24,000 bases of DNA from Dehalococcoidia bacterium (GCA_030612025.1 JAUWOR010000001.1:151790-175789); one strand, 5' to 3'. Positions 2,845-23,036 are shown, numbered from the stretch's first letter. Numbers and translations are program-made. The notes: a model not told the origin generated them from the letters alone.

Positions 2845-3885
2845 TTAAATTAGGATTTTCCCGTTCTCTATAACTGCCTTGCCATCAAATTTCAGTGTTG
2901 GTTTTGGAATCACAAAGTCTTGATGGAGATCTGCTGTTACCTTCCCACCCATGTGCGAGCTGTCCCCTACCGCGATATGAACTGTTTCCCTTATTTTTTC
3001 TGCTTCAAGTACATTGTCAGGACGCCTTGCGTTGGGATTCGTGCCAATGCCCAGCTCGGCGCAATTTCTGCGGGAGAGATAAGGTTCCTCATTTTTCCCA
3101 CAGGCTAGCATCTCTCTGAACTCATTACCCACCTTACCCCCACTGATAACTTTTGTCACCTGCCCATCTTGGAAAACAAAGGTCATATCTTTTTCCAGAT
3201 TTGCGTACCAGCCTTTTTCCACCACCAAATTTCCATTCGTCGTCCCTTCCAGGGGCACAGAAAAAACCTCGCCAGAGGGCAGATTTCCAAAGGCACCTTT
3301 TTCGGTAAATATACCATCATCTATCAGCCCTTTTCTTCCTTCCAAGCTGAATCTTAGGTCTGTGCCGCCTGGGGATGTTACCGTGACCTCTCTTGCTTGG
3401 TCAACCAGTTTTGCTATCCTCTGGCATTCCTCGTGTACCTTGGTGAAGTCTGTCGCCATCGGCCCTCCGGGATAGAACATCTCGGGAAGAAACATAGGCA
3501 TGCTCGCAATGCGCGTGCCCGATTTGGTAGCGTTCTCTCGTGCTTCTGTATGGGAAAGTGAGTAACTCGTTATAGCAATGGCTACATCAGCTTCCTTCAA
3601 TTTTTCTTCTACTTCTTTTCCAGGCTCTGCGCCATGCCTTCCCACAGAGGGATAGGCGTAAAATTGCACCTTGCAACTTGGGAACTTCTCACCTGCTATC
3701 TCGCTCACCATCCTGGCGAGGAGGGACCTTTCCACCACTTCAGCAAGTTCTTTGCTTTCCTTCTTTACCCACTCCTCGGTGGTTGGCACATCTGTAATTA
3801 CAAGTAGCCTCTCACCACTTTTGACGCCCATATTCACTTTGAACATGTTTATCACACCTGGTGCAACTTTTTCCCTCTCTACCAT
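2845..3885 (-). CDS. M29-family (AmpS/PepS/NicX-like) metalloenzyme, annotated generically as an aminopeptidase-like protein
   Basis: 346-aa ORF with the family-typical C-terminal region ...AELGIGTNPNA...ETVHIAVGDSSHMGGKVTADLHQDFVI (H-x-D metal-ligand pattern). A strong SD (aggagg) lies 8 nt upstream of the ATG. The length is closer to the NicX-like dioxygenase branch than to ~410-aa aminopeptidases; that comparison is from memory. Confidence 0.75.
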   Translation of the reverse strand: MVEREKVAPGVINMFKVNMGVKSGERLLVITDVPTTEEWVKKESKELAEVVERSLLARMVSEIAGEKFPSCKVQFYAYPSVGRHGAEPGKEVEEKLKEADVAIAITSYSLSHTEARENATKSGTRIASMPMFLPEMFYPGGPMATDFTKVHEECQRIAKLVDQAREVTVTSPGGTDLRFSLEGRKGLIDDGIFTEKGAFGNLPSGEVFSVPLEGTTNGNLVVEKGWYANLEKDMTFVFQDGQVTKVISGGKVGNEFREMLACGKNEEPYLSRRNCAELGIGTNPNARRPDNVLEAEKIRETVHIAVGDSSHMGGKVTADLHQDFVIPKPTLKFDGKAVIENGKILI

Positions 3886-3889
3886 GTTA

Positions 3890-4207
3890 TCAGCCTCCTG
3901 TGCTTTTCAATTTATCAACAAAATCCAGGATTAAACTATCGAGAAACTTGATGAACTCGTCTTTATCGCCCATTACAGAATACTTGTTATCGTTTATTTT
4001 CTTTCTTATCTCCACCAAGAATTCATCCGCTATATCTGCCTCTTCAAGAATCTCAATTAATCTGCTCGCCCCGTCGATCAATCTGAATGGGCCATATAGC
4101 TTTGGTTCCTCAACACAGTTTCTTGCCGAGGTTACCAGAAAGGCGAGCAGATTAAAAAAATCACCTTTTAGTTGACCCTTATCTATTGTGCCAGTGGACG
4201 ACTTCAC
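3890..4207 (-). CDS. Small conserved hypothetical protein (resembles DUF6092-type proteins from memory; function unknown)
   Basis: 105-aa ORF with a GTG start preceded by ggggag. It overlaps the nitroreductase stop by 29 nt and ends 4 nt before the M29 start. The helical-looking segment FFNLLAFLVTSARNCVEEPKLYGPFRLIDGASRLIEIL is the basis of the family guess. Confidence 0.5.
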   Translation of the reverse strand: MKSSTGTIDKGQLKGDFFNLLAFLVTSARNCVEEPKLYGPFRLIDGASRLIEILEEADIADEFLVEIRKKINDNKYSVMGDKDEFIKFLDSLILDFVDKLKSTGG

Positions 4208-4694
4208 TAACTCCCCTTCTTCTTGGCGGTTTTGGTATCTTTTCAGGATAGCCCAATGTGATCAGCAGTTCTGGATTTATGTGCTCTGGCAGGTCAAATA
4301 ACCTCTTTATGGCACTTATGCCAAAAGACCTTACGGTGCAAGAACCGATTCCAAGGTCATGGCTAGCCAGCATGATGTTCTGGCTAGCCATGGAGATGTC
4401 CATTAGAGATAATGTGTCTCTGCCAAGTTCACCGCAAAGCTCATATGCTCTTTTCAAGTCCCTGCAGACGATTACTATCGCTGCCGGATTCCCAAATATC
4501 CCCGGCGAGAAAGTCTTTATCTTTTTGATGTCATCGTCATTCTCTACCACAATAAATTCCCACGCCTGGGCATTACCTCCAGAGGGAGACCAGATGGCAG
4601 CCTCCACTATCTTCTCAAGCTGTTCCTTGGGAATTTTTCTATCCTGGTAGCTTCTTACGCTTCTTCTCCCCTTTATGGCGTCAAAGGTTTTCAT
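4179..4694 (-). CDS. Nitroreductase-family flavoprotein
   Basis: MKTFDAIKGRRSVRSYQDRKIPKEQLEKIVEAAIWSPSGGNAQAWEFIVV is a classic nitroreductase N-terminus. I chose the start at ATG 4692-4694 (SD ggggga 7 nt upstream) rather than the track start at 4736. Confidence 0.8.
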   Translation of the reverse strand: MKTFDAIKGRRSVRSYQDRKIPKEQLEKIVEAAIWSPSGGNAQAWEFIVVENDDDIKKIKTFSPGIFGNPAAIVIVCRDLKRAYELCGELGRDTLSLMDISMASQNIMLASHDLGIGSCTVRSFGISAIKRLFDLPEHINPELLITLGYPEKIPKPPRRRGVSEVVHWHNR

Positions 4695-4728
4695 TAAATT
4701 CCCCCATGTGCCCAAGAAAAGGGTGAGT

Positions 4729-5130
4729 TTACACAATCAGTCGTGCTTTGGCCTCTCTTACTGCCTTGTAGAGGTTGAAAATGCTCCACAAAAGTGTAAC
4801 TAGACAAACCGCGAACGCTACGTATGGAACTGCCGTCCCTACACCTTCAGTGAAGAAAGGAGCCAAAAACATAGCACATCCAGTAAGCCCCAATGAGAGC
4901 ACAATCCAGTTATGCTGTACGCATTTATTGCCAAGCTCCCATAAATCTTCTTCCTTGCTAATGCGCGGGAATATCAATGCCATACCTACCAACTGGATTA
5001 TACCTATCGCCAGATAGACAATCCCGGTAAAGACGTTTTGAGACCATGCCACGGCTGCCAATACCAAAAGCACAATGGGAAAAATCAGGATTATGCCACT
5101 GGAAATTTTTACATATCTTTTGAATTCCAT
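4729..5130 (-). CDS. Small 4-TM membrane protein of unknown function, immediately downstream of the permease
   Basis: 133-aa ORF with four hydrophobic spans. Its start is 6 nt after the NCS1 stop, suggesting co-transcription. Confidence 0.6.
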   Translation of the reverse strand: MEFKRYVKISSGIILIFPIVLLVLAAVAWSQNVFTGIVYLAIGIIQLVGMALIFPRISKEEDLWELGNKCVQHNWIVLSLGLTGCAMFLAPFFTEGVGTAVPYVAFAVCLVTLLWSIFNLYKAVREAKARLIV

Positions 5131-5136
5131 TCTATA

Positions 5137-6504
5137 TCACGCTCCTGTCTTGTCTATTGTGTGTTCTCCCAGATCCATCTTTGCGCCAGCTTTGTCGCAT
5201 GCGATGGCAATTACAATGTAAAGCACCACTCCAAGTATCAAGCAAGTAAGGCACATTATTCCCCAACTTTCAGGTATAACCCATTTACCTAGCACCGTTG
5301 CCAGAATAGCTGAAAACCATCCAATCCAGTTTACCTTACCAAATTTCATGCCTGGCTGGAACTGATATCTCTCTCTAAGAGGCACTCCTTTGTACCAGCG
5401 GTACAACCAAAAGTCAGCGATCAAAACTCCACCCGCCGCAGGCAGGAATGTTCCGAGGAGCGTCAAAAATGCCATGAAGGGGTCCATAGCCGCCCCCCAA
5501 ACACGTGCGATCACTGCCGCTAGCGCTACGCCTATTGCCCCGGCAATGAGGACGATGTACTTCCTTTGAATGGGTAACCATAGATTTATAGCTAGGGAGG
5601 TGCTATATATATTGTTGTCATTGGTTGACCATTGCCCTAGAATCGCCATCAGGAATGCACCGATACCGGCTCCGGCAGCAAGCAACGCCCCGGCAATATT
5701 CGCCTCACCTGTTACCAAGGTTATCGCGGCTGCCCCTGAAAGCATGTAAACCTGCAAAATCATAAGTTGAATTGTCCATGCTGCAGCACCATGCCAAATC
5801 TTTTTCGCGAACCGACAGATATCGGCTGTAATGATAGCTCCCACAACATACATACCGACAACTTCGGTCACACCTACACCAAAGGGAACTGGGCTTACTG
5901 GTGCGATACTGGCAAGTCCGGCGAAGCCGCCCCCCTGTTGCACGCCTATCATGACTCCGAAGCCTGCGAGCAACATAAAGAAAGGGACCGCTAAATAACT
6001 GAAAAATGCCAGACCTCTAAAACCGATGTAGGCTGTAATTAGCATTAATATGCCGCCCCATATTGAGGCCCAAAACACAGTAGCCCACGGTGCCTCGGGG
6101 AAAATGGTGCTCATGATAACGCCAAACAGCCACGTCTGTACAGTGAACCAACCAAGGGCAGGTATACCAGAAACAATTGTCCCCCACACTTGTGAACCTA
6201 CATTTCCAAATGCGGGTCTCAAGTTTACATATGTAGAGCATCTAGAGATTCCACCAATTGGAGCCGTAAGCCCTCCTATAACTGCCAATATCGCCGAACC
6301 CACAACCGCAACCCATATCGCATCCTTGAGATAAAACTGCAGACCGAGTACTGACCCTCCCCATAGCGCGGCGATACAACACAACACACCTGTATAGGTA
6401 TAAAACATGGTAAGAAGAGACCTAGTCTCTTTCTTTGGTACAGGCACCAGTGCGTAATCGCCATACTTATCTTCCCAGGGCCAAACTTCTTTATTCTTTC
6501 TCAT
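5137..6504 (-). CDS. NCS1-family permease (purine-cytosine / hydantoin-type transporter)
   Basis: 455-aa ORF with about 12 TM spans and a cytosine-permease-like layout (N-terminal ...ETRSLLTMFYTYTGVLCCIAALWGG...). It sits next to a hydantoin-type racemase. Confidence 0.85.
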   Translation of the reverse strand: MRKNKEVWPWEDKYGDYALVPVPKKETRSLLTMFYTYTGVLCCIAALWGGSVLGLQFYLKDAIWVAVVGSAILAVIGGLTAPIGGISRCSTYVNLRPAFGNVGSQVWGTIVSGIPALGWFTVQTWLFGVIMSTIFPEAPWATVFWASIWGGILMLITAYIGFRGLAFFSYLAVPFFMLLAGFGVMIGVQQGGGFAGLASIAPVSPVPFGVGVTEVVGMYVVGAIITADICRFAKKIWHGAAAWTIQLMILQVYMLSGAAAITLVTGEANIAGALLAAGAGIGAFLMAILGQWSTNDNNIYSTSLAINLWLPIQRKYIVLIAGAIGVALAAVIARVWGAAMDPFMAFLTLLGTFLPAAGGVLIADFWLYRWYKGVPLRERYQFQPGMKFGKVNWIGWFSAILATVLGKWVIPESWGIMCLTCLILGVVLYIVIAIACDKAGAKMDLGEHTIDKTGA

Positions 6505-6613
6505 GTTAACACCTCTTCAATTAGTTCTCGTTTTTCCCTTCCTTCCCTGACAGTCCCTTCACCATCTTAGTAGCTACCTATTATGTTTTTTATATCTACA
6601 TCTTAATCTATCA

Positions 6614-7345
6614 TCACAACCTCCCCAATATATTCCTTTCTTTATCCGGCGGAGGCATATATGTTTTTTTGCTCTGCTTCAAACCGAGGGCTATTAGCAT
6701 CTCGAGATATTTTACCGCGACTGCCACGGGATATATTACCGGGACTCCATAACCTTTCTTCTTCAGGGCGTCCGATAAATCATCTGCTACCCCAAGCATC
6801 CCTGTGCACCCTAAGACGATAGCATGCGCACCATCCTCCGCTATTGCCTTTATTGACTCGTCAACTAAAGCGCTTGTCAGCTTTTTGACATCCGTTAGAT
6901 CAAGAACTGGTATGTTAATAAATCTTACAGATGCCAGCTTGCTGCCCAATCCAACTTCCATAACCCTATTTTCGAAAACTGTCAATGCGTTCTCCAATAC
7001 GGTTACAATAGAGAATCTGTGTGCCAAATCCGCAGCACAAAGCATGGATATACTGCCAGGACCTACCACCGGGATATCAAGTTTTTCTCTCAGTGCATCC
7101 AGAGCAGGATCACACATACAGTCTGTAATTACCCCATCGAAACCATCGGACTGGGCCTTCTCTGCCACCTTTATGATTCCGGGAGCAACCAGCATCTCAT
7201 CATAGCTCGATTCTATCGATGCCGTCCCATATTCGATAGCTTCAACATCAATTTCTGTGCCTTTAGAGGCAAACTTTTCTACCTCTTCTCGAGTGGGTGC
7301 TACAAATTCTTTTGTCGTTACCGGCACTATTACCTTAATTTTCAT
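6614..7345 (-). CDS. Asp/Glu/hydantoin racemase family protein (hydantoin racemase-like)
   Basis: 243 aa with two catalytic-type cysteine motifs, ...GVITDCMCDPAL... and ...AIVLGCTGMLG..., at the spacing expected for hydantoin racemases. Confidence 0.8.
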   Translation of the reverse strand: MKIKVIVPVTTKEFVAPTREEVEKFASKGTEIDVEAIEYGTASIESSYDEMLVAPGIIKVAEKAQSDGFDGVITDCMCDPALDALREKLDIPVVGPGSISMLCAADLAHRFSIVTVLENALTVFENRVMEVGLGSKLASVRFINIPVLDLTDVKKLTSALVDESIKAIAEDGAHAIVLGCTGMLGVADDLSDALKKKGYGVPVIYPVAVAVKYLEMLIALGLKQSKKTYMPPPDKERNILGRL

Positions 7346-7428
7346 GCTGATTCATCCCTTGCTTGCTCTCCTGTTATCTTTTCACCTCAAATTCGTACTT
7401 CAACTCTATAGTAGGAAATAAGATATAA

Positions 7429-7453
7429 GAGGAAACTTCATGCAGTTTTCCTC
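7429..7453 (-). terminator. Putative intrinsic terminator after the second DUF917 gene
   Basis: The minus-strand RNA folds as GAGGAAA-N11-UUUCCUC (7-bp stem), starts 1 nt after the stop codon (7455-7457) and is followed by UUAUAUCUUAUUU. Confidence 0.45.
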
Positions 7454-7454
7454 A

Positions 7455-8492
7455 TTACCCTACCGGAACATACCCACCTTTATATCCGATACTTTCAAGG
7501 ACATGCTTAAATACTTGGAATCCTTCAGGCGGCCTCCACTTCTCGTGGGCTTTTTTCCCTATTACTGCTACATCCATTCCTTCCGCTACGTCCGCATTTG
7601 TAAGAGGTTCTCCATCTGTTCTCAACCAACAGATAGAGTCAGGCACTGTTACCAGTGGCTTGTCCTTTCTCCATGCCATCATATTCTCGTTTTTGTAGTC
7701 CACAATGATGTCTTCTACAAAGACCCTACCATAATCAAAGCCTGCCTTAACCTCTTCCGTCTTCTTGGCAATCTTCCCCCTGGCAAGTACAATACCATCT
7801 ATAGCTTCTGTTGCTGCCTCGACCACATCTCTTCCAGATGCTTTTGCTTCTCTTATACCTTTTCCCACTTTCTCTGCTAGCGACAGTGCACCTGGTATCA
7901 CCACCTCTTTAAGTTGTTTTCCTGTCATTAGATGACAGGCTAACCCAGCAGTCATACCAAATACTGTGGTTACCGCCCTGCCCAGCTCTTCACCCATGTA
8001 GGCATCAGTTACGTATAGAATGGCAGAATTCCCTTTTGAATCTGCCAGCGAAATTGGAGAAACAGGAATGCCGTGAATATAAAACATGGTCATTTCCAGT
8101 TCTGGTACCGCTCTTCCAGCACCATCACCGTCTACGACCGGCAAACCTTTAACAGCCCCCGCATGTAATGGAGTCACAGAATTAAAACCGCCCGTTTCTA
8201 CAGGAACCACGTAGTCTATTTTCTTGCCTGTCACCTCCGCCAATCTTTCCAGTGCGGGTACCTCTTCTCCCTTCCACCCTTCCTTAAGCAGGACAACAGG
8301 GGAGCCCATGCCAGCCACAACAGCCACCGCACTATCATCAGGTACGTCGCCCGGTTCAACCAAAATAACCTCTCTTATTTCTTCTACAAGTTGTAAACCT
8401 GTTCTTGAAGATCCACCTCCACCCGCCCCGAGTAGTGTTGCTCCTCTTATTATGTCCTCTATTTCTTGTTGGTGTAATATTCTCTTCATCAC
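7455..8492 (-). CDS. DUF917 family protein (paralogue B)
   Basis: Carries the DUF917 hallmarks GATLLGAGGGGS, VETGGFNSVTPL and VVDGDGAGRAVPELEMTMF. 345 aa. Confidence 0.8.
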   Translation of the reverse strand: MMKRILHQQEIEDIIRGATLLGAGGGGSSRTGLQLVEEIREVILVEPGDVPDDSAVAVVAGMGSPVVLLKEGWKGEEVPALERLAEVTGKKIDYVVPVETGGFNSVTPLHAGAVKGLPVVDGDGAGRAVPELEMTMFYIHGIPVSPISLADSKGNSAILYVTDAYMGEELGRAVTTVFGMTAGLACHLMTGKQLKEVVIPGALSLAEKVGKGIREAKASGRDVVEAATEAIDGIVLARGKIAKKTEEVKAGFDYGRVFVEDIIVDYKNENMMAWRKDKPLVTVPDSICWLRTDGEPLTNADVAEGMDVAVIGKKAHEKWRPPEGFQVFKHVLESIGYKGGYVPVG

Positions 8493-8645
8493 TTCCCTCC
8501 TTCAAGAAATATGCCTGTTTCGGTTTTAACATGAACACTAGAGTAAGTCAAGAGGGTGTACTCGTTCATTGATTAGTTACACTTTAGCTCCTTTCAACTT
8601 CAGCTTGGCATTAAATAAATTTTTCCTCGATATGCCTCACCCCCT

Positions 8646-9731
8646 TTATAACAAGGTTAGATAATCACCCTTGTAGCCTAGTCTCACCAATATATGTTTC
8701 CAGCAATTAAATCCGTCGGGGGTTCTCCTCCAGGGTTCCGGGGCAGAAATTCCCAAAATAGCTATTTCCATACCTTCCTTGGTATCTGCATTTGTAACAG
8801 GCTCTCCTGCGGTTGTCATCATAGCTATCAAGTCAGGAACCATTATTACCGGCTTTTCATCTTGCCAGGCAATCATATTCTCGTTGACTGAGTCTATAAT
8901 GAATATTTTGCCTTGGTAATTTGTAATACCCTCGATAGTTGTCCGGCCAATGTCAAACCCTTCAGCTGTTCTTGTCTCAATTTTCTTGATATTGCCCCTA
9001 AAAATCTCTTTCCCCCCAGTAATGCTTATAACCTCTTTCACAGTGTCCCTGCCGCTAGCTTTTGCTTTTCTTATCGCCTTGCCTACTTCTTCACATTTCG
9101 AAATAGAGTTTGGCACAAGGCAATTTCTTATAGTGGCAATGTCAACTATCCAGGTGGCAAATGCGGCTAACATTCCGAACGAGACTGCCGCGGTTCTAGC
9201 CATCTTCTCTGCTGAGGCAGTATCAAGCGGGTCTTTTAAGTATGCCACCAGAACATCCCCGGCCTTATTGGCAACCACCAGCGGGCTAGTAGGAATCCTG
9301 TATATGGGATAAAGCCCGGTGCTTAGCTCGGGAACAGCACGTCCATTACCATCAGCATCAACAACAGGGATGCCTTTTTGTGATGCTACATAAAGTGGTG
9401 TCATGGTATTGAGACCACCAATTTCACCTGGCATCAAATAAGCTAGATTGATTCCCCCTACGGCAGCCATATTCCTGATTGCTTCATAGGCAAATATAGC
9501 CTCAGGACCGAAGCCCCTTTCAATCATGACTTTTGGGGAGCCTATCCCAGCTACTACCACTGCATTGGCTCTATCTGGCAAGTCTTCTATATTAAACATT
9601 TCTATTTCATTTTCTATTTGTTTAACAAGATTTAAGCCATCACGAGGAGAACCACCTCCGCCAGCACCAAAAATTGTTGAACCCCAGACTATATCCTCTA
9701 GCGCTGTTTTCCCTAATAACCTCCTTGCCAT
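8646..9731 (-). CDS. DUF917 family protein (paralogue A)
   Basis: Carries the DUF917 hallmarks GSTIFGAGGGGS, GEIGGLNTMTPL and VVDADGNGRAVPELSTGLY. 361 aa. SD ggagg lies upstream of the ATG. Confidence 0.8.
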   Translation of the reverse strand: MARRLLGKTALEDIVWGSTIFGAGGGGSPRDGLNLVKQIENEIEMFNIEDLPDRANAVVVAGIGSPKVMIERGFGPEAIFAYEAIRNMAAVGGINLAYLMPGEIGGLNTMTPLYVASQKGIPVVDADGNGRAVPELSTGLYPIYRIPTSPLVVANKAGDVLVAYLKDPLDTASAEKMARTAAVSFGMLAAFATWIVDIATIRNCLVPNSISKCEEVGKAIRKAKASGRDTVKEVISITGGKEIFRGNIKKIETRTAEGFDIGRTTIEGITNYQGKIFIIDSVNENMIAWQDEKPVIMVPDLIAMMTTAGEPVTNADTKEGMEIAILGISAPEPWRRTPDGFNCWKHILVRLGYKGDYLTLL

Positions 9732-9741
9732 TTTATACCTC

Positions 9742-9921
9742 CTAAATCAGATGCTTTCCATCCTTAATTCCGGTTTTACCATCAATTACTAGAGTTGGAT
9801 TTCCCATAATCCCATCCAGACGCGCTGGTGCTTTTACCTTGCCACCAATTGTGCTGTTATCTCCTATAGCTATTTTGTCGCCTCTATCCTTGCCGCTTCT
9901 ACCATTGCATCTGCCTTCAGT
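9742..9921 (-). pseudogene. 5'-truncated second M29-family gene (C-terminal ~46 aa retained)
   Basis: Below the ORF-track size cutoff. My translation is ...GDKIAIGDNSTIGGKVKAPARLDGIMGNPTLVIDGKTGIKDGKHLI*, which aligns with the C-terminus of the 2845-3885 product (ETVHIAVGDSSHMGGKVTADLHQDFVIPKPTLKFDGKAVIENGKILI*). The frame is closed by TAA at about 9922. The stop lies 10 nt before the DUF917-A start. Confidence 0.6.
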
Positions 9922-10184
9922 TTAGTTAATCACCTTATTATCTCTACCTTATAATCTCCTCTTAGCACAAGAGGCTAATTTAAACACTAACAAAATGTAC
10001 TGTAAGTTGTAAAGAAAGATGGTTGAATTTTTATATTGAACTAATTAGAGACGCCCATCATGCGATGGGCCAGCTAAATATGAAGGTAGTTAGAGGCTCC
10101 TGCGATTCTAGATAACTTAGTAGCATCGCTGTCTTCATTTAATGCCAAAAATTATAAACGCTACTCCAATTTTAGGCAAGCATA

Positions 10185-10255
10185 TTAGGCTAATAAATAA
10201 GATTTTAGCTCAGTTAAGTTGCTAATAGACTCCTGATGGTCATCCCCTGCTCTAT
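10185..10255. repeat. Right copy of the 71-bp direct repeat (3' end of the intact HAD gene)
   Basis: See 2577-2647: 66/71 identical at a constant offset of 7608 nt. Confidence 0.85.
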
Positions 10256-11143: not shown

Positions 11144-11147
11144 GAGA

Positions 11148-11270
11148 CCGTTTAAAAATGTAGTTGCCTGATTTATCAGGCACAGTCGCCCAATAAATTG
11201 GGCAACTACAAAAATTTGGGGGTGAAACGCCTCTGAGATGGCTGAAATTGAACGGGGAATCAAAATTAAA
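11148..11270 (-). repeat. 123-nt structured repeat, copy A (flanks in reverse orientation, core in 'flop')
   Basis: Its reverse complement aligns base-for-base with 22831-22953 (6 mismatches in 91 flank/stem positions). The exception is the 32-nt core (11169-11200), which is identical to 22901-22932 on the SAME strand, so it is inverted relative to the flanks. The core is bounded by the 9-bp inverted repeat gtagttgcc/ggcaactac. Confidence 0.85.
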
Positions 11271-11361
11271 CAGCATGTCAGAATGACAGGAGGCGAAGGG
11301 CTCAAAATAACAAGGCCACAGGCAAAATTAAAGAGCTTCTCAGAGGAAAGGGGTAAATTTT

Positions 11362-12082: not shown

Positions 12083-12233
12083 GGCCGTTTAATTTTGCCT
12101 CATCCAGTTTTAATACTCTTCACCTCCAAGATTTTCGTAGTGCGACCCTTTAGGGTCGTGCACGAGGCTACCCCGTGTAGTAATCTTCGCTACTACACAG
12201 GGCTAAAGCCTCGCACTACATTTTTAAACACCT
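12083..12233 (+). repeat. Composite GTAG...CTAC nested-hairpin element carrying a nested 30-nt hairpin insertion
   Basis: Same architecture as 22354-22445: ggc[c/t]gtttaattttgcctcatcc ... gtagtgcg-gaccctttagggtc-gtgcac-gaggctaaagcctc-gcactac-atttttaaacacc. Between 12170 and 12206 it carries an extra ccccGTGTAGTAatcttcgcTACTACACag flanked by a duplicated GGCTA. The left arm has a further ~24-nt insert. Confidence 0.8.
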
Positions 12234-12347
12234 TTAAACACCCTCTTTTAGTAAGGATATTCTTAATAGCATCTCGTTGTCAATATCCAAGAAAACCCAG
12301 ATGGCGTCGTAGCTGTGGGGTTTTAGACCTGTTCTCCGCCTAATTAC

Positions 12348-12415: not shown

Positions 12416-13765
12416 TCAAGGTTGAAGCTCTTTGACCATATAAGCGATTTCTAATCTATAGCCAAGTGAGCGAAAGTAATCTCTACTTCCAACGCCACTC
12501 AAAACACTCAGCTTCCCAGCAAGGAATTCCTCCCGAGCAATTCTCTCTGCTTCTCGAAGCAACTTTTCCCCTAAACCCCTGTGCTGAGCAGCCCGCTCTC
12601 GCTTTTCCCCTAAGGGGACCTCAGAACCAAAGACATGTAGCTCCCTGATTAAAGCTGAGCCAATATTGATCCTGAGCCTTAATAAGCCAAATAAGGTCTC
12701 ATTGGCATCCTCGTAGGAAAGAAAAATTTCCTTCCCTCCGTAAGTTTCATAGTCCATCCTGAATAGCCAAGGCTCGCCAATCATCCAGCCATCCCTTAAC
12801 CTATGCCCATATTCCCGACAGCGAATACAGCGACAATGAAGGCCCAACTCGCTCATCCGCTTCCTGACGCTCCCCCGCAACGCCAGGTCTCTGCTGCCAG
12901 CAATGATAAATTTGCTGGGGATATCCCGCATCAGCCTGGGTATTCTGACATATTTGGGAATCAGGGTTTTGATATTCACCAGTAAATCTATCATCTCCCC
13001 ATCCTCATAAGGCTGGTATTTGTTATCTCGATACCATTCCTCTAGCTCACTTCCTACAACCACCAGCGTAGGGTAAAGCTTGAGCCCATCGGGTCGGAAA
13101 TATTCATCAGCGAATAATTTCCGTGATAGCTCCAGGTCATGCTCCGGCGTCGAGCCAGGCAGACCAGGCATCCAATGATAGTAGACCTTAAAGCCATAAT
13201 CCCTCAGTAACCTGGTGGCAGAGATGACCTCAGCTACTCCATGCCCTCTCTTCGTTAAACGGTGAATGTCATCATCCAGCGTCTGTACCCCAAGCTCCAC
13301 CCTGGTAGTGCCAAAATCAAGCATACTCTTTATCTCCACCTCTCCACACCAATCAGGCCTGGTCTCAATACATAATCCCACACAGCGACGCTCAGCAGTT
13401 TCATTCATTTTCTTGGCTTCCTCTAAGTTAGCCGAAGGAACACCATTGAGAGCATCATAGCAGTCCTTAACAAATTGATATTGATACTCACAAGGGTAAG
13501 CTAGAAAGGTGCCTCCCATGATGATGAGCTCTATTTTATCCACTGGATGTCCCATATCAGCCAATGTCCTGAGCCGGAACTCCACTTGCCTTTTGGCATC
13601 AAAGTTACATTTCCTGGCGCGAAGAACCGCCGGAGATTCTATGGTGTAGCTCTTTGGTGCTTCAGGAGAGCTGGGGCAATAAACGCATTTGCCAGGGCAG
13701 GGGAATGGCTTGGCCATAACCGCCACCGGTGTTACCCCGGAAATAGTGCGCGATATTTTCTTCAT
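12416..13765 (-). CDS. elp3: Elp3-type radical SAM / GNAT tRNA U34 carboxymethyl-modification enzyme (short bacterial form)
   Basis: 449 aa. It has a radical-SAM cluster region (...PFPCPGKCVYCPS...), a TIM-barrel core and a C-terminal GNAT with QHRGLGEKLLREAERIA. The size and N-terminus match the compact bacterial Elp3 known from Dehalococcoides (from memory). Confidence 0.9.
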   Translation of the reverse strand: MKKISRTISGVTPVAVMAKPFPCPGKCVYCPSSPEAPKSYTIESPAVLRARKCNFDAKRQVEFRLRTLADMGHPVDKIELIIMGGTFLAYPCEYQYQFVKDCYDALNGVPSANLEEAKKMNETAERRCVGLCIETRPDWCGEVEIKSMLDFGTTRVELGVQTLDDDIHRLTKRGHGVAEVISATRLLRDYGFKVYYHWMPGLPGSTPEHDLELSRKLFADEYFRPDGLKLYPTLVVVGSELEEWYRDNKYQPYEDGEMIDLLVNIKTLIPKYVRIPRLMRDIPSKFIIAGSRDLALRGSVRKRMSELGLHCRCIRCREYGHRLRDGWMIGEPWLFRMDYETYGGKEIFLSYEDANETLFGLLRLRINIGSALIRELHVFGSEVPLGEKRERAAQHRGLGEKLLREAERIAREEFLAGKLSVLSGVGSRDYFRSLGYRLEIAYMVKELQP

Positions 13766-14535: not shown

Positions 14536-14907
14536 TCATTTTCTTCCTTTCAGAGTTAGTATGCTAGTGGCGAGTATATTAGCAATCTCTGTGGCCTCTT
14601 TTAGAAGTTTATTAACGGTGTCTTTGTCACCTCTGTCGGAATCTCTGAGCAGTCCTAACCAGAACTTGCATTCATTTGCCGACTTCAGTGCATAAGCGAA
14701 GAAGTTGGTATAATCCTTCCTTGAAGAGGCTGCCTGAGCCTCGATTACATTAGCACCAATACTGGTAGTGCTTCGTAAAAGCTGGTCACTGATGATCCTC
14801 GAGGTTTGCTCCACTGACAGCTTATCCACAAATCCGATTACATCCAGTGCAAATTTATAGACACGTCTCTTGAATTCATTTTTAAATTTTGCCTTGTCAT
14901 TTTGCAT
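14536..14907 (-). CDS. Four-helix-bundle protein (23S rRNA intervening-sequence protein / Avd-like family)
   Basis: 123 aa. ...YKFALDVIGFVDKL...QLLRSTTSIGANVIEAQAASSRKDYTNFFAYALKSANECKFWLGLL... is the family signature. Confidence 0.85.
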   Translation of the reverse strand: MQNDKAKFKNEFKRRVYKFALDVIGFVDKLSVEQTSRIISDQLLRSTTSIGANVIEAQAASSRKDYTNFFAYALKSANECKFWLGLLRDSDRGDKDTVNKLLKEATEIANILATSILTLKGRK

Positions 14908-14969: not shown

Positions 14970-17900
14970 TTACGGACTTGGTTGCTCACTGGATGGGTCT
15001 TGACCCACCTTCACCTTCTCAGGAAAGCCAGCTTCGACAAGGCCAATGAAAACCTCCACCAGCTGGGGGTCAAACTGCTTACCAGCGCCTTGCCTAAGCT
15101 GTTTTATCACTTTGTCATCGCAGAAGGCATCACGATAAGGGCGAGCAGAAGTCATGGCAGCGAAGGCGTCAGCTATAGCCAGAATGCGAGCATCCAAAGG
15201 AATAGTCTCGCCTTTAAGCCCCTCAGGATAGCCAGTGCCATCCCACCTCTCATGGTGGTATAAAATGGCAGGCAAACAAGAAACTAAACTAGGCACATTA
15301 CCAACAATGTTGGCCCCAAATTTGGGATGAGACTTAATTGCTTCCCAGTCCTCAGTAGTAAGCTTCCCCTTTTTGTTCAGTACCTTATCAGGAATACCAA
15401 TCTTACCAATATCATGAAGCAAAGCAGCCGTGCTTACTCTAGACACCTCGTCAGGTGACAAGCCGATCGCCTCAGCCAAAGCCACAGCATAAGTGTTAAC
15501 TTTCCTGGAATGACCATAAGTATAATGGTCTCTAGCATCCACTGCTGAGACCAAGGCATAGACAGCGCTTAAGCCACCTCCTCTGGCATTAGCCCCTGCC
15601 TCGATTGGTGGCTCAGACAAAATTTTAGCCGAGAGATAAGTTCGATTGCCGCCGGTGCGCTTGGCATAATAAAGAGCAGTATCACTTGCAGTGATCAACT
15701 CACCGGACATCACTCCATCAGAAGGATAGCTAGCCAAACCAATGCTGCAAGTTATGGCGACTTCCTTAGCTTTCATTTCGCTGGCAATCTGCTCCCGAAC
15801 TCTTTCAGCTACCACGTAAGCATCTTCGCTAATTGTCTGAGGCAAAATGACGATAAACTCATCACCACCATACCGGAAAGCCTGGTCAGCATTCCTGATA
15901 GAGCTCTTGATGATACTACCTATTTGGTCCAGAAGCTCATCGCCAGCAGGGTGTCCATATATATCGTTGTAGGTCTTAAAGCCATCGAGGTCGAGCATGA
16001 GCAAGGAGAATATATTACCGTAGCGGGAATGTCGGGCAATTTCTTCTTTAAGCCGCTCTTCAAAATGGCGACGGTTAAATAGCCCGGTGAGCTCATCAAT
16101 GCGAGCCCTCTGCTCCGCCCTAGCATAGAGCTGGGAGTTCTCAATGGGTGTAGCAATCTGCAAAGCCAAGTGCTCCAGAAGTCGTATTTGCTCGGTATTA
16201 TAGGCAGCAGCTCGGCGACTGGCCACAATCAAGCTGCCGATACCCCCACCCCGGACAACCAGGGGCAGGTAAACAATAGAGCGAACTCCCCGTCTCAGAT
16301 GATGCTCTCCAGTCCAGAATCTTTTATGTCGTGCCAGATTAGCTTCATATAAGCTCCTCTTCTCCTTAGCCACCCACTCAGTAGCTGTGCCCTCAAGTGG
16401 TATCCTCTCCCCTACTTTCCACGCTGAACCGATAGTGCTAGATAGAGCTAAGAAACGAAGCTCAACTCCTTCAATCAAAGCAATTGTGCCCCAGTCAACA
16501 TCAACTACCTCCTTTAGCGCTTGAGCAAAACCTTCAAATATCTCCTCGATGTTCATACTCGAGGTTATAATTGTAGTTAAACGATTGACGAGGGTTAATT
16601 CTTTGTCCTGCTGTTCCAATTGCTCATGGAGATATTCTTTTTCCATACTGGCGGCCACCTGGCCAGCAATGGACTCCATTAAATCAAGCTCTTCAAGGCG
16701 ATAAAGCTTTCCATTTCGCTTGTTGCCCACCGCCAAAATAGCCACAAGCTCACCCCTATTTATTAAAGGAACGAGCATTTGTACTTTTGCCGATTGAATA
16801 TCTTCTTTTTCCTCTTGCCACAAACCTTGAAATTCGGGGAGGATGCTGAGGTTCCTTTCAGGTAGTGTTTGAGCCTCCCGCTTCAGCCAGGCCACAATAG
16901 GGCTATCATGCCTCACTTTCAACTTCGCTACAGGATTATCTTCCACAGGAGGATAGCTAAATCGGGGAGCAAAATCTCCACTCTCAGTTTGGGGTAAAAG
17001 CAAACAGGCTCGGTGACAATCAATCGATTGAGAGAGTAAGGACACAAGCTGGCTGCCAAACTGTTCCAGAGTGGGAACACTGTGTATTTTGGCGATAAAG
17101 TCATGTAATCTGTGCCGGGGCTCAATTCTCTCACCGTAGAAGACTCGATCCACTCTCCCAAAAATTTTGTTACGCACCCGATACCAAAAAGGGGCTGCTA
17201 TAGCTCCTGTGCATAACATGGCAATAATAATAGTAGGAAAGCCGAGCTCAAAGCCAAACGCTTTTAGGAGCAAGAGAAGCCCGGCAAAAAAGGTAACTAC
17301 GAGTAAGGCAGCCATGCCGCTGAAACTCAACGCCTCACGGAGAACAACTCTGACATCGAGCAACTTATGCCTTACCACAGCATAGGTCAAGATACCAGCA
17401 TTGAGTAAATTGCCAACATGGGCAAAAGGATACCCCCTTCCAAAAGGAAAGAAAGTGCTCGAGGTAAAAGTAATCAAAATAGCAACACCCATGAATAAAT
17501 AAACAATTTGGTTGCGCTCTGCTGGGTCAGCTAAAACCCTGTGCCGGCGAGCTAAAGAATATATGTCTCTGCCACCCAAGGCGAAGATGCCGGAAACTAT
17601 GAGAATATACCAACTACCATACTGAACATTGATGCCGCTAGCAGTAATATCCATACCCTGTGGGATATAGCCCAGCGCTGCCAACACAATCATGCTTACT
17701 ACCAAAACGTAGGCCAAGGGTATTTTGATGTGCTGACGCCGATAAAAAGAACATAAAAAGTAATGATATTGAACCCCCATCCAGATGCCAAAGCAGATGC
17801 CAACTTTAGTCAGAAGGAGCCTATGCGGCACAAGAAAGCCGCTGCGGAAGAAAAAGCCGCTAAGGCTCCACAGCACGGCAGGAATCAGCAATAGAAGGAA

Positions 17901-18002
17901 AAACTTTTGTTTTCTACCCCAGGGGCGGTTGCTTAACAAAACGACAAACAGGGGGATATAAGCAATGGTGGCAATTAAAGGGATTAAAGCCTGAATATTC
18001 AT
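14970..18002 (-). CDS. Membrane-anchored c-di-GMP turnover protein: N-terminal 7TM sensor region, GAF domains, GGDEF diguanylate cyclase, HD-GYP phosphodiesterase
   Basis: 1010 aa. The first ~280 aa carry about 7-8 TM spans. The central region is GAF-like. The GGDEF domain has an intact active site (RYGGDEFIVIL) and an RxxD I-site (RNAD). The HD-GYP domain is intact (LLHDIGKIGIP..., YHHERWDGTGYPEGL). Confidence 0.9.
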   Translation of the reverse strand: MNIQALIPLIATIAYIPLFVVLLSNRPWGRKQKFFLLLLIPAVLWSLSGFFFRSGFLVPHRLLLTKVGICFGIWMGVQYHYFLCSFYRRQHIKIPLAYVLVVSMIVLAALGYIPQGMDITASGINVQYGSWYILIVSGIFALGGRDIYSLARRHRVLADPAERNQIVYLFMGVAILITFTSSTFFPFGRGYPFAHVGNLLNAGILTYAVVRHKLLDVRVVLREALSFSGMAALLVVTFFAGLLLLLKAFGFELGFPTIIIAMLCTGAIAAPFWYRVRNKIFGRVDRVFYGERIEPRHRLHDFIAKIHSVPTLEQFGSQLVSLLSQSIDCHRACLLLPQTESGDFAPRFSYPPVEDNPVAKLKVRHDSPIVAWLKREAQTLPERNLSILPEFQGLWQEEKEDIQSAKVQMLVPLINRGELVAILAVGNKRNGKLYRLEELDLMESIAGQVAASMEKEYLHEQLEQQDKELTLVNRLTTIITSSMNIEEIFEGFAQALKEVVDVDWGTIALIEGVELRFLALSSTIGSAWKVGERIPLEGTATEWVAKEKRSLYEANLARHKRFWTGEHHLRRGVRSIVYLPLVVRGGGIGSLIVASRRAAAYNTEQIRLLEHLALQIATPIENSQLYARAEQRARIDELTGLFNRRHFEERLKEEIARHSRYGNIFSLLMLDLDGFKTYNDIYGHPAGDELLDQIGSIIKSSIRNADQAFRYGGDEFIVILPQTISEDAYVVAERVREQIASEMKAKEVAITCSIGLASYPSDGVMSGELITASDTALYYAKRTGGNRTYLSAKILSEPPIEAGANARGGGLSAVYALVSAVDARDHYTYGHSRKVNTYAVALAEAIGLSPDEVSRVSTAALLHDIGKIGIPDKVLNKKGKLTTEDWEAIKSHPKFGANIVGNVPSLVSCLPAILYHHERWDGTGYPEGLKGETIPLDARILAIADAFAAMTSARPYRDAFCDDKVIKQLRQGAGKQFDPQLVEVFIGLVEAGFPEKVKVGQDPSSEQPSP

Positions 18003-18179: not shown

Positions 18180-18240
18180 GTAGTGCGTGGCTTTAGCCTC
18201 GTGCCCGGTAACGATGCACGACCCTAAAGGGTCGTACTAC
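18180..18240 (-). repeat. GTAG...CTAC two-hairpin element, long variant, inverted orientation
   Basis: gtagtgcg-tggctttagcctcg-tgcccggtaacgatgcac-gaccctaaagggtc-gtactac is the reverse orientation of the 21787-21848 copy. It shares the same 14-nt inter-hairpin insert. Confidence 0.8.
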
Positions 18241-18284
18241 ATTTATGAGATTGCCATGCTTCGCTCGCAGTGACGAAAAGGAGA

Positions 18285-20006: not shown

Positions 20007-20045
20007 AGCACACCTCCTATACCGTTTGCCATATTGCCATCCAGC

Positions 20046-21719: not shown

Positions 21720-21786
21720 AGTTACACCTCCTACTAAATTTGAGGCTATTCATTTCATTCCTCTAAGACGCATCTGTTTTCCTAAC

Positions 21787-21848
21787 GTAGTGCGACCCTT
21801 CAGGGTCGTGCATCGCTAACCGGGCACGAGGCTAAAGCCTCGCACTAC
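21787..21848 (+). repeat. GTAG...CTAC two-hairpin element, long variant
   Basis: gtagtgcg-gacccttcagggtc-gtgca[tcgctaaccgggca]c-gaggctaaagcctc-gcactac, with tail gtttttgaacagcc. Confidence 0.8.
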
Positions 21849-21989
21849 GTTTTTGAACAGCCTCAATTATTAGCTTGAGGACACTATGACAGGGCTTAAT
21901 TTAATTGGGAAGTGATTATGTTCTAGAAGATAGTTCTATTTGAAGCTGTAAAAAGTATGACTGCGGGGAAAATGTGGGAAAGGTGTTTC

Positions 21990-22310: not shown

Positions 22311-22353
22311 ATAACGCTCCTCTCAAATCATGATACCCCCTACATTTTATTCA

Positions 22354-22445
22354 GGCTGTTTAATTTTGCCTCATCCGGATTCTCGTAGTGCGACCCTTTA
22401 GGGTCGTGCACGAGGCTAAAGCCTCGCACTACATTTTTAAACACC
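22354..22445 (+). repeat. Canonical (shortest) GTAG...CTAC two-hairpin element with arms
   Basis: ggctgtttaattttgcctcatccggattctc-GTAGTGCG-GACCCTttAGGGTC-gtgcac-GAGGCTaaAGCCTC-GCACTAC-atttttaaacacc. The outer 8-bp stem (22385-22392 with 22425-22432) is perfect. Confidence 0.85.
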
Positions 22446-22521
22446 TTCATGTTAAATAGGGGGTGACCTTTACAACCTTCTTGTTCTCAGGCACCCCCAC
22501 GATAACCGCAATGCTCAAGCC

Positions 22522-22797: not shown

Positions 22798-22830
22798 TGT
22801 CACCACTCCACTCCTATCACCTATAGGCTA

Positions 22831-22953
22831 TCTAATTTTGGTTCCCCATTCAAGTTCAGCCATCTCAGAGGTGTTTCACCCCCAAATTTTTGTAGTTGCC
22901 TGATTTATCAGGCACAGTCGCCCAATAAATTGGGCACCTACATTTTTAAACGG
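22831..22953 (+). repeat. 123-nt structured repeat, copy B (core in 'flip')
   Basis: See 11148-11270. The stems are at 22892-22900 and 22933-22941 (one mismatch) and the core at 22901-22932. It lies 34-156 nt upstream of the wHTH start. Confidence 0.85.
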
Positions 22954-23036
22954 CCTTATTACTATCGTCCTATGACCATTTTACCACAGGCAGAAAAGTT
23001 GTCAATAGAACAATGTTCTACCTTGTCTAATGTGGC

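Follow-up and report, generated by a model that had tools for sequence, protein, structure and literature searches.

Eight genes in the 24-kb window (the whole stretch of Dehalococcoidia bacterium DNA that was analysed) form a real operon, which is a member of the widespread class of "non-CDPS CDO clusters"; the combination is therefore not new. The block falls in this class because its nitroreductase and small protein form a pair resembling cyclodipeptide oxidases. We tentatively read the operon as a catabolic or salvage unit that acts on a small cyclic amide or ureide, derived from an amino acid and taken up by the cell, with a 5-substituted hydantoin-type ring as the leading candidate substrate in the window, and give this reading somewhat under even weight. 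The features, in window positions, are:

2578-2647, no strand assigned: direct repeat copy 2, an orphan HAD 3' end that stops 4 nt ahead of a LivH-like start
2845-3885, minus strand: M29/NicX-fold protein, putative metalloenzyme, 346 aa (PF02073, 35.6 bits)
3890-4207, minus strand: CDOB, AlbB-like subunit, DUF6092, 105 aa (PF19585, 2.2e-30)
4179-4736, minus strand: CDOA, AlbA-like nitroreductase-fold FMN subunit (PF00881), 171 aa from the likely ATG at 4694
4729-5130, minus strand: 4-TM membrane protein, 133 aa, about four TM segments by hydropathy, no family match
5137-6504, minus strand: NCS1 permease, CodB-like, 455 aa (PF02133)
6614-7345, minus strand: two-cysteine racemase of the hydantoin/allantoin subfamily, 243 aa (PF01177, 1.3e-41)
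7455-8492, minus strand: DUF917-B, 345 aa (PF06032 and PF20906)
8646-9731, minus strand: DUF917-A, 361 aa, S-Me-THD-like N and C domains (PF06032 and PF20906)
9742-9921, minus strand: M29/NicX-like paralog remnant, a pseudogene; C-terminal piece, frameshifted
10151-10179, minus strand: promoter-like site ahead of the block, TTGCCT-17-TATAAT, 10/12 matches
10186-10255, no strand assigned: direct repeat copy 1, formed by the final 26 codons of the HAD hydrolase gene that lies upstream

The eight open reading frames fill positions 2845-9731 and all lie on the minus strand, as the sequence-only reading had proposed, in an operon-like unit with intergenic gaps of -29 to 153 nt. A purine-rich Shine-Dalgarno-like stretch precedes seven of the eight starts and is weak at that of the racemase, and all the proteins except the 4-TM protein exceed the Pfam gathering score of their own family (7/8). 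The block is bracketed by the two copies of a 70-nt direct repeat, 94% identical and spaced by 7608 nt, whose translation is the C-terminus of a HAD hydrolase. Regarding the promoter-like site, the total count of such sites is at chance level, and the same TTGCCT-17-TATAAT sequence is also found upstream of a different operon in locus L006.

That the nitroreductase flavoprotein and the DUF-type small protein are a pair had been overlooked. Judged by sequence, they are an AlbA/AlbB-type cyclodipeptide-oxidase-like pair: the best PDB match of CDOA is 8uc3_A (albonoursin synthase, AlbA; 8.8e-31), and CDOB matches 8uc3_D of the same entry (AlbB; 1.6e-9). The two genes overlap by 29 nt, and the likely CDOA start agrees with its ortholog in L001, which is called as 171 aa. 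CDOA keeps R24, R28, N55, C133, S137 and R173, so that of the AlbA FMN and interface residues R24, R28, S54, N55, S139 and R175 it misses S54 only; this is replaced by G54, a change to Gly shared by 9 of 16 related CDOAs. In CDOB, E34, P35, Y38, R42, M79 and G80 correspond to E33, P34, Y37, R41, M78 and G79 of AlbB. D113 of CDOA aligns with C115 of AlbA, the residue that marks the DKP-specific clade and is missing from non-CDPS CDOAs. This substitution, together with the absence of a CDPS gene among the window ORFs, places the pair in the non-CDPS CDO subclass.

Andreas and Giessen (Nat Commun 2024; PMC11055893) were the first to catalogue clusters of this subclass, using bioinformatics, with Chloroflexota among the main host phyla. 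Their surroundings are enriched in racemase, DUF917, transporters and peptidases, and their list includes a CDOA/B pair from Dehalococcoidia that visibly resembles the one in the window (PMC11055893); both points lend independent support to the operon reading. Secondary metabolism is one possibility given for such clusters in PMC11055893, the characterised CDOs are tailoring enzymes, and the M29-fold protein has CgnE, of crocagin biosynthesis, as a structural neighbour (TM 0.47). It is nevertheless quite improbable that the cluster serves biosynthesis or tailoring, with a modified hydantoin or a dehydro-peptide natural product as its output, as CDPS, NRPS, precursor peptide and exporter are absent from the window, an importer-type NCS1 lies inside the operon, the neighbours are amino-acid transporters and most of the hosts are anaerobic fermenters with small genomes.

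The gene combination is conserved, the same eight genes recurring in independent contigs and the core of the block in Aerophobetes, Thermoproteota, Bathyarchaeia, Anaerolineae and Bacillota. M29, two or three DUF917 genes, NCS1, the 4-TM protein and CDOA/B are found in an Aerophobetes locus (L007) and a JGI locus (L087), the order DUF917-DUF917-M29-CDOA-CDOB in a Fervidicoccus-labelled one (L092), and subsets of the core in Nezhaarchaeota (L075) and Sulfolobales (L021). DUF917, racemase, M29 paralog or CDOA are carried by 45 of the 64 non-redundant bacterial and archaeal loci with an M29 ortholog, and by 30 of the 38 such loci of at least 12 kb. The DUF917, M29-like and racemase genes keep each other's company, and two Bacillota loci (L044 and L046) even have the whole set in duplicate, a joint behaviour that fits DUF917 and M29 acting together. 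Many archaeal loci, in turn, contain CDO, M29 and its paralog without DUF917, so the ring may be opened by something other than DUF917.

The two DUF917 proteins are diverged, as had been claimed: they share 42% identity, and both contain PF06032 and PF20906. DUF917-B retains the family-invariant E103, D125, D127, R131, N283, E284 and D300 (DUF917-A numbering), and the AF2 model of DUF917-A (pLDDT 94) has the fold of 2o3i, its sole structural match (TM 0.87), with no solved hydrolase among the matches. The description of the family as one of unresolved function is partly outdated, since NCBIfam model names record characterised (S-methyl)thiohydantoin desulfurases, which are the only named DUF917 models. 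The window copies score 78-93 bits (79-93 for DUF917-A) against the equivalog cut-offs of 440-450 (NF058529 and NF058532), and profile searches moved neither the DUF917 proteins nor the M29-like protein to a characterised enzyme.

The racemase is of the two-cysteine type predicted by the earlier reading, retaining Cys76/78 and Cys180, and its top PDB matches, 3qvj (2.6e-32) and the allantoin racemase 5lfd (1.1e-25), are hydantoin and allantoin racemases. The hydantoin character assigned to uptake is valid at the level of the NCS1 family only, because the sole PDB match of the permease is CodB (7qoa; 1.1e-27) and Mhp1 is not matched at E <= 0.001. Against the cytosine-permease model NF008241 it scores 201 bits, with a cut-off of 326. 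This closeness to cytosine permease speaks against a hydantoin substrate. The 4-TM protein is a conserved partner of the NCS1 permease, in agreement with the coupling suggested before: its gene starts 6 nt past the NCS1 stop, and a homolog directly follows NCS1 in L007, L021, L075 and L087.

The hydantoinase and the carbamoylase had been reported as missing, and family searches of all ORFs in the 24-kb window indeed returned no dihydropyrimidinase, HyuA/B or carbamoylase. No family of hydantoinases or carbamoylases is shared by five or more of the related loci, and a CN_hydrolase is found nearby in a single one (L087). The similarity of the permease to CodB and of the racemase to 5lfd would also suit salvage of nucleobases or purine-derived ureides (allantoin, dihydropyrimidines, cytosine analogues or creatinine-like rings), purine metabolism being one option in PMC11055893. 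We consider this unlikely: allantoinase, allantoicase, ureidoglycolate, dihydropyrimidinase and deaminase genes are absent in the window and non-recurrent in the related loci, which are dominated by peptide-type transporters and an aminopeptidase-type enzyme.

Assignment of the last protein of the block to an M29-like fold and family holds. Its PF02073 match (35.6 bits, cut-off 27) covers residues 147-247, the central third, its precomputed family is PF26233 (NicX), and its AF2 model superimposes in Foldseek with a TM score of 0.71 on NicX, 0.62 on PepS and AmpT and 0.52-0.62 on aminopeptidases overall. The NicX-like dioxygenase role is unlikely, since the protein keeps two of the four NicX iron ligands, H318 and D320 (as H321 and D323), and has E277 in place of H265 and A305 in place of S302, two residues that mutagenesis showed to be essential. 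The protein instead appears, from its residues, to carry the aminopeptidase-type set at five metal-ligand positions. E206, E277, H303, H321 and D323 show no variation across 16 homologs; E206, H321 and D323 align with E253, H381 and D383 of PepS, and E277 and H303 are equated with M29 ligands by motif spacing and invariance. The dinuclear M29 ligands we take to be Glu253, Glu319, His348, His381 and Asp383 (AmpS/PepS numbering) and, to our knowledge, aminopeptidases are the only known hydrolases in M29.

A further M29-like stretch, at about 9742-9921, is not a gene. The fragments '..VEAARIEATK*' and 'IAIGDNSTIGGKVKAPARLDGIMGNPTLVIDGKTGIKDGKHLI*' sit in different frames, the ligand positions are degenerate, and phmmer finds the same piece in L001. 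It is the remnant of a NicX-like paralog that elsewhere keeps H265, H318 and D320. As the M29-like protein matches NicX best in both sequence and fold, oxidative cleavage of a hydroxypyridine-like ring by a NicX-type Fe(II) dioxygenase might be imagined. It is very improbable, given the exchanged iron ligands, the extra E206 and H303 that fit the aminopeptidase pattern, the degraded state of the only NicX-like paralog in the window and the presence of anaerobes among the carriers. Dehalococcoidia, Bathyarchaeia and Fervidicoccus are anaerobes.

The most likely substrate is an amino-acid-derived cyclic amide, either a 5-substituted hydantoin or a diketopiperazine. A hydantoin-like ring is suggested by the top PDB matches of the racemase, by the thiohydantoin desulfurases as the only named DUF917 models and by the NCS1 transporter. 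The alternative, a 2,5-diketopiperazine (cyclic dipeptide), is possible though doubtful. The racemase would then epimerise D-containing rings, DUF917 (elsewhere the NicX-like paralog) would open the ring, the resulting linear dipeptide would be cut by the M29 aminopeptidase-like enzyme, and dehydrogenation of the ring would fall to the CDO-like enzyme. Cyclic dipeptides are the substrates of all characterised CDOs (PMC11055893). [quoted passage not shown] A phrase search of a limited set of papers gave one incidental mention of a cyclic dipeptide hydrolase and no description of a gene for one. A peptide-like ring is favoured over a hydantoin by these CDO substrates and transporters, by the aminopeptidase nature of the known M29 hydrolases, apparently shared by this protein at its five ligand positions, by the DUF917 fold, unmatched to any solved hydrolase, and by DUF917 scores far under the desulfurase cut-offs. 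On the other side, the racemase is much nearer to the hydantoin/allantoin racemases (1e-32) than to OpaE (4e-8), the named DUF917 relatives work on thiohydantoins, the window transporter is NCS1 rather than of the peptide type, and non-CDPS CDOAs are without the Cys115 of the DKP-specific clade.

The analysis shows the gene identities, the conserved catalytic and interface residues and the co-occurrence across phyla. For the hydantoin-type ring, we infer what the substrate is, which way the pathway runs and all of its chemistry, ring opening by DUF917 and M29 purely so. The ring compound would be imported by the CodB-like permease with its 4-TM partner, and the two-cysteine racemase would interconvert its two enantiomers (D and L) at C-alpha of the ring. 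DUF917-A/B might then add water to the N-flanked ring carbon, by analogy with the characterised relatives, which act at C2 of 2-thiohydantoins; the ring would be opened or decarboxylated, in replacement of a dihydropyrimidinase-type hydantoinase. The M29-fold enzyme, in place of a carbamoylase, would cleave off the N-terminal or amide group still present (N-carbamoyl, amide or aminoacyl) and release the free amino acid. Finally, the AlbA/AlbB-like flavoenzyme, which probably forms a filament and binds FMN non-covalently, may dehydrogenate (or reduce) the ring substituent at its C-alpha-C-beta bond, with an acceptor other than O2.

Compared with AlbAB of Streptomyces noursei (8uc3), the top PDB match for both subunits, the window pair has likewise overlapping genes and keeps the FMN-phosphate arginines and the AlbB residue set, but has Asp for Cys115, so that no covalent FMN is predicted, G54 for S54 and no CDPS partner in the window; as the host is probably anaerobic, O2 is an unlikely acceptor. 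The CDO class is further marked by filaments of alternating A2 and B2 dimers and by C-alpha-C-beta dehydrogenation, traits that the window pair may share. The block shares with the non-CDPS CDO clusters (PMC11055893) the overlapping CDOA and CDOB (PF19585), the absence of CDPS and the PF01177 racemase, DUF917, transporter and peptidase-family neighbours; the M29/NicX-like protein and NCS1 are unnamed there, and the DUF917 pair, the 4-TM partner and the M29 paralog system unreported.

The (S-methyl)thiohydantoin desulfurases have the same two domains and align nearly end to end with the DUF917 proteins; the window differs in having two paralogous copies, far under the equivalog cut-offs, with neither ergothionase nor thiourocanate hydratase. 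The M29-like protein shares its fold and H-x-D motif with NicX and with the aminopeptidases AmpS, AmpT and PepS. It is similar to NicX (PF26233) in length and architecture and differs from it in its apparently aminopeptidase-like ligand set; it falls short of the M29 aminopeptidases by about 60 residues and matches Pfam M29 in its central third only. Finally, classical hyu clusters also combine an NCS1 transporter with a two-cysteine racemase of the hydantoin/allantoin subfamily in one operon, but here the permease appears CodB-like rather than Mhp1-like and, with dihydropyrimidinase-type and HyuA/B hydantoinases and carbamoylase all lacking, their place is occupied by the DUF917, M29-fold and CDO-like genes.

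The block consists of eight minus-strand ORFs arranged head to tail from 9731 down to 2845.

Genes of the block
8646-9731, minus strand: DUF917-A, 361 aa
7455-8492, minus strand: DUF917-B, 345 aa
6614-7345, minus strand: Asp/Glu/hydantoin racemase, 243 aa
5137-6504, minus strand: NCS1 permease, 455 aa
4729-5130, minus strand: membrane protein of about four TM segments, not assigned to a Pfam family, 133 aa
4179-4736, minus strand: nitroreductase (CDOA), 185 aa, or 171 aa from the ATG at 4694
3890-4207, minus strand: DUF6092 protein (CDOB), 105 aa
2845-3885, minus strand: M29-like protein, 346 aa

All the genes except the 133-aa one pass the Pfam gathering score, the intergenic gaps range from -29 to 153 nt, and a purine-rich Shine-Dalgarno-like stretch precedes seven of the eight starts, that of the racemase having only a weak one. 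No dihydropyrimidinase, HyuA/B or carbamoylase was found among the ORFs of the 24-kb window. The observation made in the sequence-only reading, a co-directional block devoid of the canonical hydantoinase and carbamoylase, is therefore correct, and its interpretation as a non-canonical N-heterocycle pathway is supported in part. The window was scanned in full against Rfam at gathering thresholds and yielded no riboswitch or other RNA, and promoter and terminator scans of the window gave counts no higher than chance.

The most important correction concerns the nitroreductase and the small DUF protein, which had been listed as separate components. Their closest solved relatives are the two subunits of one enzyme, AlbA (8uc3_A, 8.8e-31) and AlbB (8uc3_D, 1.6e-9), and the two proteins form a cyclodipeptide-oxidase (CDO)-like pair. 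As with albA and albB, their genes overlap, here by 29 nt. The FMN-phosphate arginines R24, R28 and R173 are kept in the window CDOA, together with N55, C133 and S137, and the six AlbB residues highlighted in the AlbAB structure paper (E33, P34, Y37, R41, M78 and G79) are all present in CDOB as E34, P35, Y38, R42, M79 and G80.

Profile searches did not reassign the DUF917 copies in the same way. The family can no longer be described as one of unresolved function, since NCBIfam now names two equivalogs in it, the thiohydantoin desulfurase and the S-methyl thiohydantoin desulfurase. The window copies align with these nearly end to end but reach only 78-93 bits against cut-offs of 440-450 and are on sequence distant paralogs of the desulfurases rather than those enzymes. 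Characterised DUF917 members act on 5-substituted 2-thiohydantoins, in which they hydrolytically exchange the sulfur substituent at C2 for oxygen; this chemistry shows that hydantoin-type rings are bound within the family and that water is added to a carbon lying between two nitrogens. DUF917-A and DUF917-B share 42% identity, and the residues that do not vary among 38 family members of related loci are present in both copies (DUF917-A numbering): the GxGGGG loop, E103, D125, D127, R131, N283-E284 and D300. The AF2 model of DUF917-A (pLDDT 94) matches the structural-genomics entry 2o3i with a TM of 0.87 and no other solved structure at E < 0.001.

The racemase contains the cysteines Cys76/78 and Cys180, and its closest solved relatives are hydantoin/allantoin racemases (3qvj, 2.6e-32; 5lfd, 1.1e-25). 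Hydantoin-type uptake had also been proposed. The NCS1 family assignment held, but the permease reaches 201 bits with the cytosine-permease model, CodB (7qoa, 1.1e-27) is the sole PDB match, and the hydantoin permease Mhp1 was not matched in the PDB search; the protein is thus CodB-like, as far as sequence tells. Salvage of a nucleobase or ureide is an unlikely role for the block. The 4-TM gene lies directly 3' of NCS1 in four other surveyed loci (L007 8598-9023; L021 11493-11891; L075 5910-6332; L087 14633-15031), and the 133-aa protein looks like an undescribed accessory subunit of the NCS1 transporter.

The AF2 model of the M29-like protein (pLDDT 82, pTM 0.78) resembles NicX best (TM 0.71), followed by PepS/AmpT (0.62), AmpS (0.52) and CgnE (0.47). 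The Fe(II) ligands of NicX are His265, Ser302, His318 and Asp320, each of them essential by mutagenesis (PMC7910607). These positions are occupied by E277, A305, H321 and D323 in a HMMER alignment of the window protein, whose E206 aligns with PepS Glu253, and H321/D323 with PepS His381/Asp383. Five residues, E206, E277, H303, H321 and D323, do not vary among 16 homologs, and we take them to be the ligand set of the dinuclear M29 site, E277 and H303 being putative assignments drawn from spacing only. As the residues at the ligand positions are of the aminopeptidase rather than the NicX type, the comparison favours a metallohydrolase over a dioxygenase, and the presumably anaerobic lifestyle of most carrier hosts fits this reading. 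A NicX-type dioxygenase was rejected on the substitutions of E277 for His265 and A305 for Ser302, which leaves NicX-like dioxygenation a highly improbable account of the block.

A second, divergent protein adjoins the M29 ortholog in 26 loci (e.g., L003 8929-9975; L088 7754-9962; L090 1956-2999). This paralog shows the pattern Q/H/E/H/D at the five ligand positions, is the stronger NicX match of the two (1.1e-16), and retains H265, H318 and D320 of NicX as well as the substrate residues E177 and H189. It is often absent from loci with two DUF917 genes; its hosts are mostly anaerobes. The window retains the following trace of it, which had been included as a possible second M29-like enzyme and is not a gene.

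9742-9921, minus strand: frameshifted C-terminal remnant of the M29 paralog, with degenerate metal-ligand positions

Conservation was surveyed in 80 genome loci and nine others, scanned with the window proteins and by all-against-all ORF clustering. The survey was anchored on the M29 ortholog, and neighbours were counted over the 64 non-redundant loci that carry it, the Dpp/Opp identities being verified with Pfam.

Neighbours of the M29 ortholog
Dpp/Opp-type ABC ATPase: 34 of 64 loci
DUF917: 27 of 64 loci, two or more copies in ten
Racemase: 26 of 64 loci
Second, divergent M29 paralog: 26 of 64 loci
Family-5 solute-binding protein: 21 of 64 loci
CDOA: 12 of 64 loci
NCS1: 5 of 64 loci

Co-occurrence of DUF917, M29, racemase and NCS1 genes does recur. 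At least one of DUF917, M29 paralog, racemase and CDOA is found in 45 of the 64 loci, and in 30 of the 38 that span at least 12 kb; none of the families that recur in at least five of the surveyed loci is a hydantoinase or carbamoylase family. The identical eight-gene block is present on ENA contigs encoding the window's M29-like protein, whose closest genome match is a Dehalococcoidia MAG (L006, 97% identity). Ortholog identities of 71% (Aerophobetes), 76% (a Thermoplasmata MAG), 80% (a Firmicutes MAG) and about 65% (Bathyarchaeia/Hadarchaeota) amount to an unusual conservation across domains, from which we infer horizontal spread. The window block is most closely resembled by Aerophobetes L007 and JGI L087, in which M29 is accompanied by two or three DUF917 genes, NCS1, the 4-TM gene and CDOA/B, by a contig labelled Fervidicoccus fontis with DUF917-DUF917-M29-CDOA-CDOB, and by Nezhaarchaeota L075 and Sulfolobales L021. 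Bacillota L044 and L046 carry a repeated unit of DUF917, M29 paralog and racemase. Many archaeal loci have M29 and its paralog flanked by CDOA/B only, without DUF917, and further DUF917-less loci combine a racemase, M29 paralogs and a Dpp transporter. The SBP_bac_5 subfamily was discarded as a substrate clue, its matches being merely generic (NikA/GsiB/DppA level). Occasional neighbours include a DppA-type D-aminopeptidase (M55; L090 157-981), aldehyde:ferredoxin oxidoreductase, ferredoxin and flavodoxin-like genes (L089 2336-5547), and a CN_hydrolase of the nitrilase superfamily, which includes carbamoylases (L087 8185-8988).

The block and its 450-nt leader are flanked by a 70-nt direct repeat, 94% identical, at 10186-10255 and 2578-2647. 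The repeat is the 3' end (last 26 codons) of the upstream HAD gene, and the copy at 2578-2647 ends 4 nt ahead of the LivH-like start codon. In L006, the same repeat follows M29 (5067-5305) and is succeeded by the window's leader sequence and then by a different operon, of ABC-transporter and aminotransferase genes. This junction suggests that recombination at the repeat relocated the cassette; the repeat-bracketed stretch contains no integrase. Directly 3' of the block, at 1-2574 on the minus strand, are two genes for LivH/LivM-type permeases and one for an ABC ATPase; no solute-binding-protein gene intervenes. They were rejected as part of the unit because their adjacency is not conserved in L006, where ABC_sub_bind binding proteins, an aminotransferase and an SNF symporter stand in their place; the BPD_transp_2 gene next to M29 in L089 is no ortholog.

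Three further genes of the window are unconnected with the block.

12416-13765, minus strand: Elp3-like radical-SAM protein (Radical_SAM and Radical_SAM_C)
14536-14907, minus strand: 23S rRNA intervening-sequence protein
14970-18002, minus strand: GAF-GGDEF-HD-GYP signalling protein, 1010 aa

Two tandem paralogous genes at 18336-21719 (minus strand; 556 and 557 aa) encode acyl-acid amido synthetase-like proteins of the GH3 family, best known from plants, and share 72-81% nucleotide identity over repeat families D1-D3. Several families of dispersed intergenic repeats of 40-130 nt with GC-rich hairpins, e.g., GCACGAGGCTAAAGCCTCGC, occur in the window (12130-12236; 18180-18257; 21780-21865; 22346-22449), and a 130-nt element is present at two sites in inverted orientation (11145-11274 and 22827-22956). 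These repeats may be REP- or MITE-like elements.

The block is most likely an operon that serves the catabolism of an imported cyclic amide derived from an amino acid; a biosynthetic role is very unlikely. In such an operon, the NCS1 permease and its 4-TM partner would import the amide, the racemase would equilibrate the ring Cα, DUF917-A/B would hydrate and open the ring, the M29-fold hydrolase would release the free amino acid, and the AlbAB-like enzyme would dehydrogenate or reduce the Cα-Cβ bond with a non-oxygen acceptor. The evidence on the substrate is split between classes. A hydantoin-type ring, which we favour tentatively, with less than even confidence, is indicated by the subfamily of the racemase, the DUF917 precedents and the NCS1 type of the transporter. 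A diketopiperazine is possible, if doubtful: diketopiperazines are the only known CDO substrates, the M29-fold protein has an aminopeptidase-type site, Dpp/Opp transporters dominate the related loci, L090 adds the DppA enzyme, and OpaE provides a precedent for ring-residue epimerisation within the racemase superfamily. A phrase search of the accessible papers returned no description of a diketopiperazine hydrolase gene, only one incidental mention.

It is possible, though less likely than not, that the triad of racemase, DUF917 and M29-fold protein, with an optional AlbAB-like filament, constitutes a widespread, horizontally shared anaerobic pathway that replaces hydantoinase and carbamoylase or supplies the long-missing diketopiperazine hydrolase. 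In a specific version, DUF917 would attack the urea carbon C2 like its desulfurase relatives, turning a 5-substituted hydantoin into an amino acid amide with release of CO2; hydrolysis of the amide would then fall to the aminopeptidase-type M29 enzyme, and the idea agrees with the lack of a carbamoylase. If true, the pathway would provide the first functions for CDOs encoded without a cyclodipeptide synthase (non-CDPS CDOs), for most of the DUF917 family and for the NicX-like M29 subfamily, the latter two being, like the first, in need of a function. The same core occurs in peptide-fermenting bacteria and archaea of the subsurface and hot springs and the pathway may therefore matter where debris of cyclic peptides or ureides is turned over in anoxic sediments. 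If hydantoins or diketopiperazines are indeed converted to amino acids by a new route, biocatalysis would gain an alternative to the hydantoinase process. The window holds a compact, self-contained version of the cluster, with eight genes, its own importer and no paralog redundancy; its conserved residues yield clear predictions, and the open question is directly testable at this locus.

The class to which the block belongs has already been described bioinformatically, by Andreas and Giessen (bioRxiv 2023; Nat Commun 2024, PMC11055893), and is biochemically unexplored. They catalogued 274 CDO-like gene pairs, 88% of which sit outside CDPS clusters and have no known substrate, in neighbourhoods enriched in PF01177 racemases, DUF917 (PF06032), AroM, transporters and peptidases. 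Chloroflexota is a major host phylum, anaerobes are among the hosts, and Supplementary Data 1 includes a Dehalococcoidia CDOA/CDOB pair visibly similar to that of the window; hydantoin/allantoin-like substrates or unknown natural products were the authors' speculation (PMC11055893). Cys115 of AlbA is limited to CDPS-associated CDOAs (PMC11055893), whereas the window CDOA has an Asp (D113) at this position, as do 14 of 16 related CDOAs. To a specialist aware of the 2024 paper, the locus is in itself unsurprising. M29, NicX, aminopeptidase genes and the NCS1 family are mentioned neither in its text nor in its supplements, and to that description our analysis adds the M29-fold protein with aminopeptidase-type residues and orthologs unusually conserved across phyla, the NicX-like paralog system that has decayed in this genome, the conserved 4-TM partner of the NCS1 permease, and the repeat bracketing the block.
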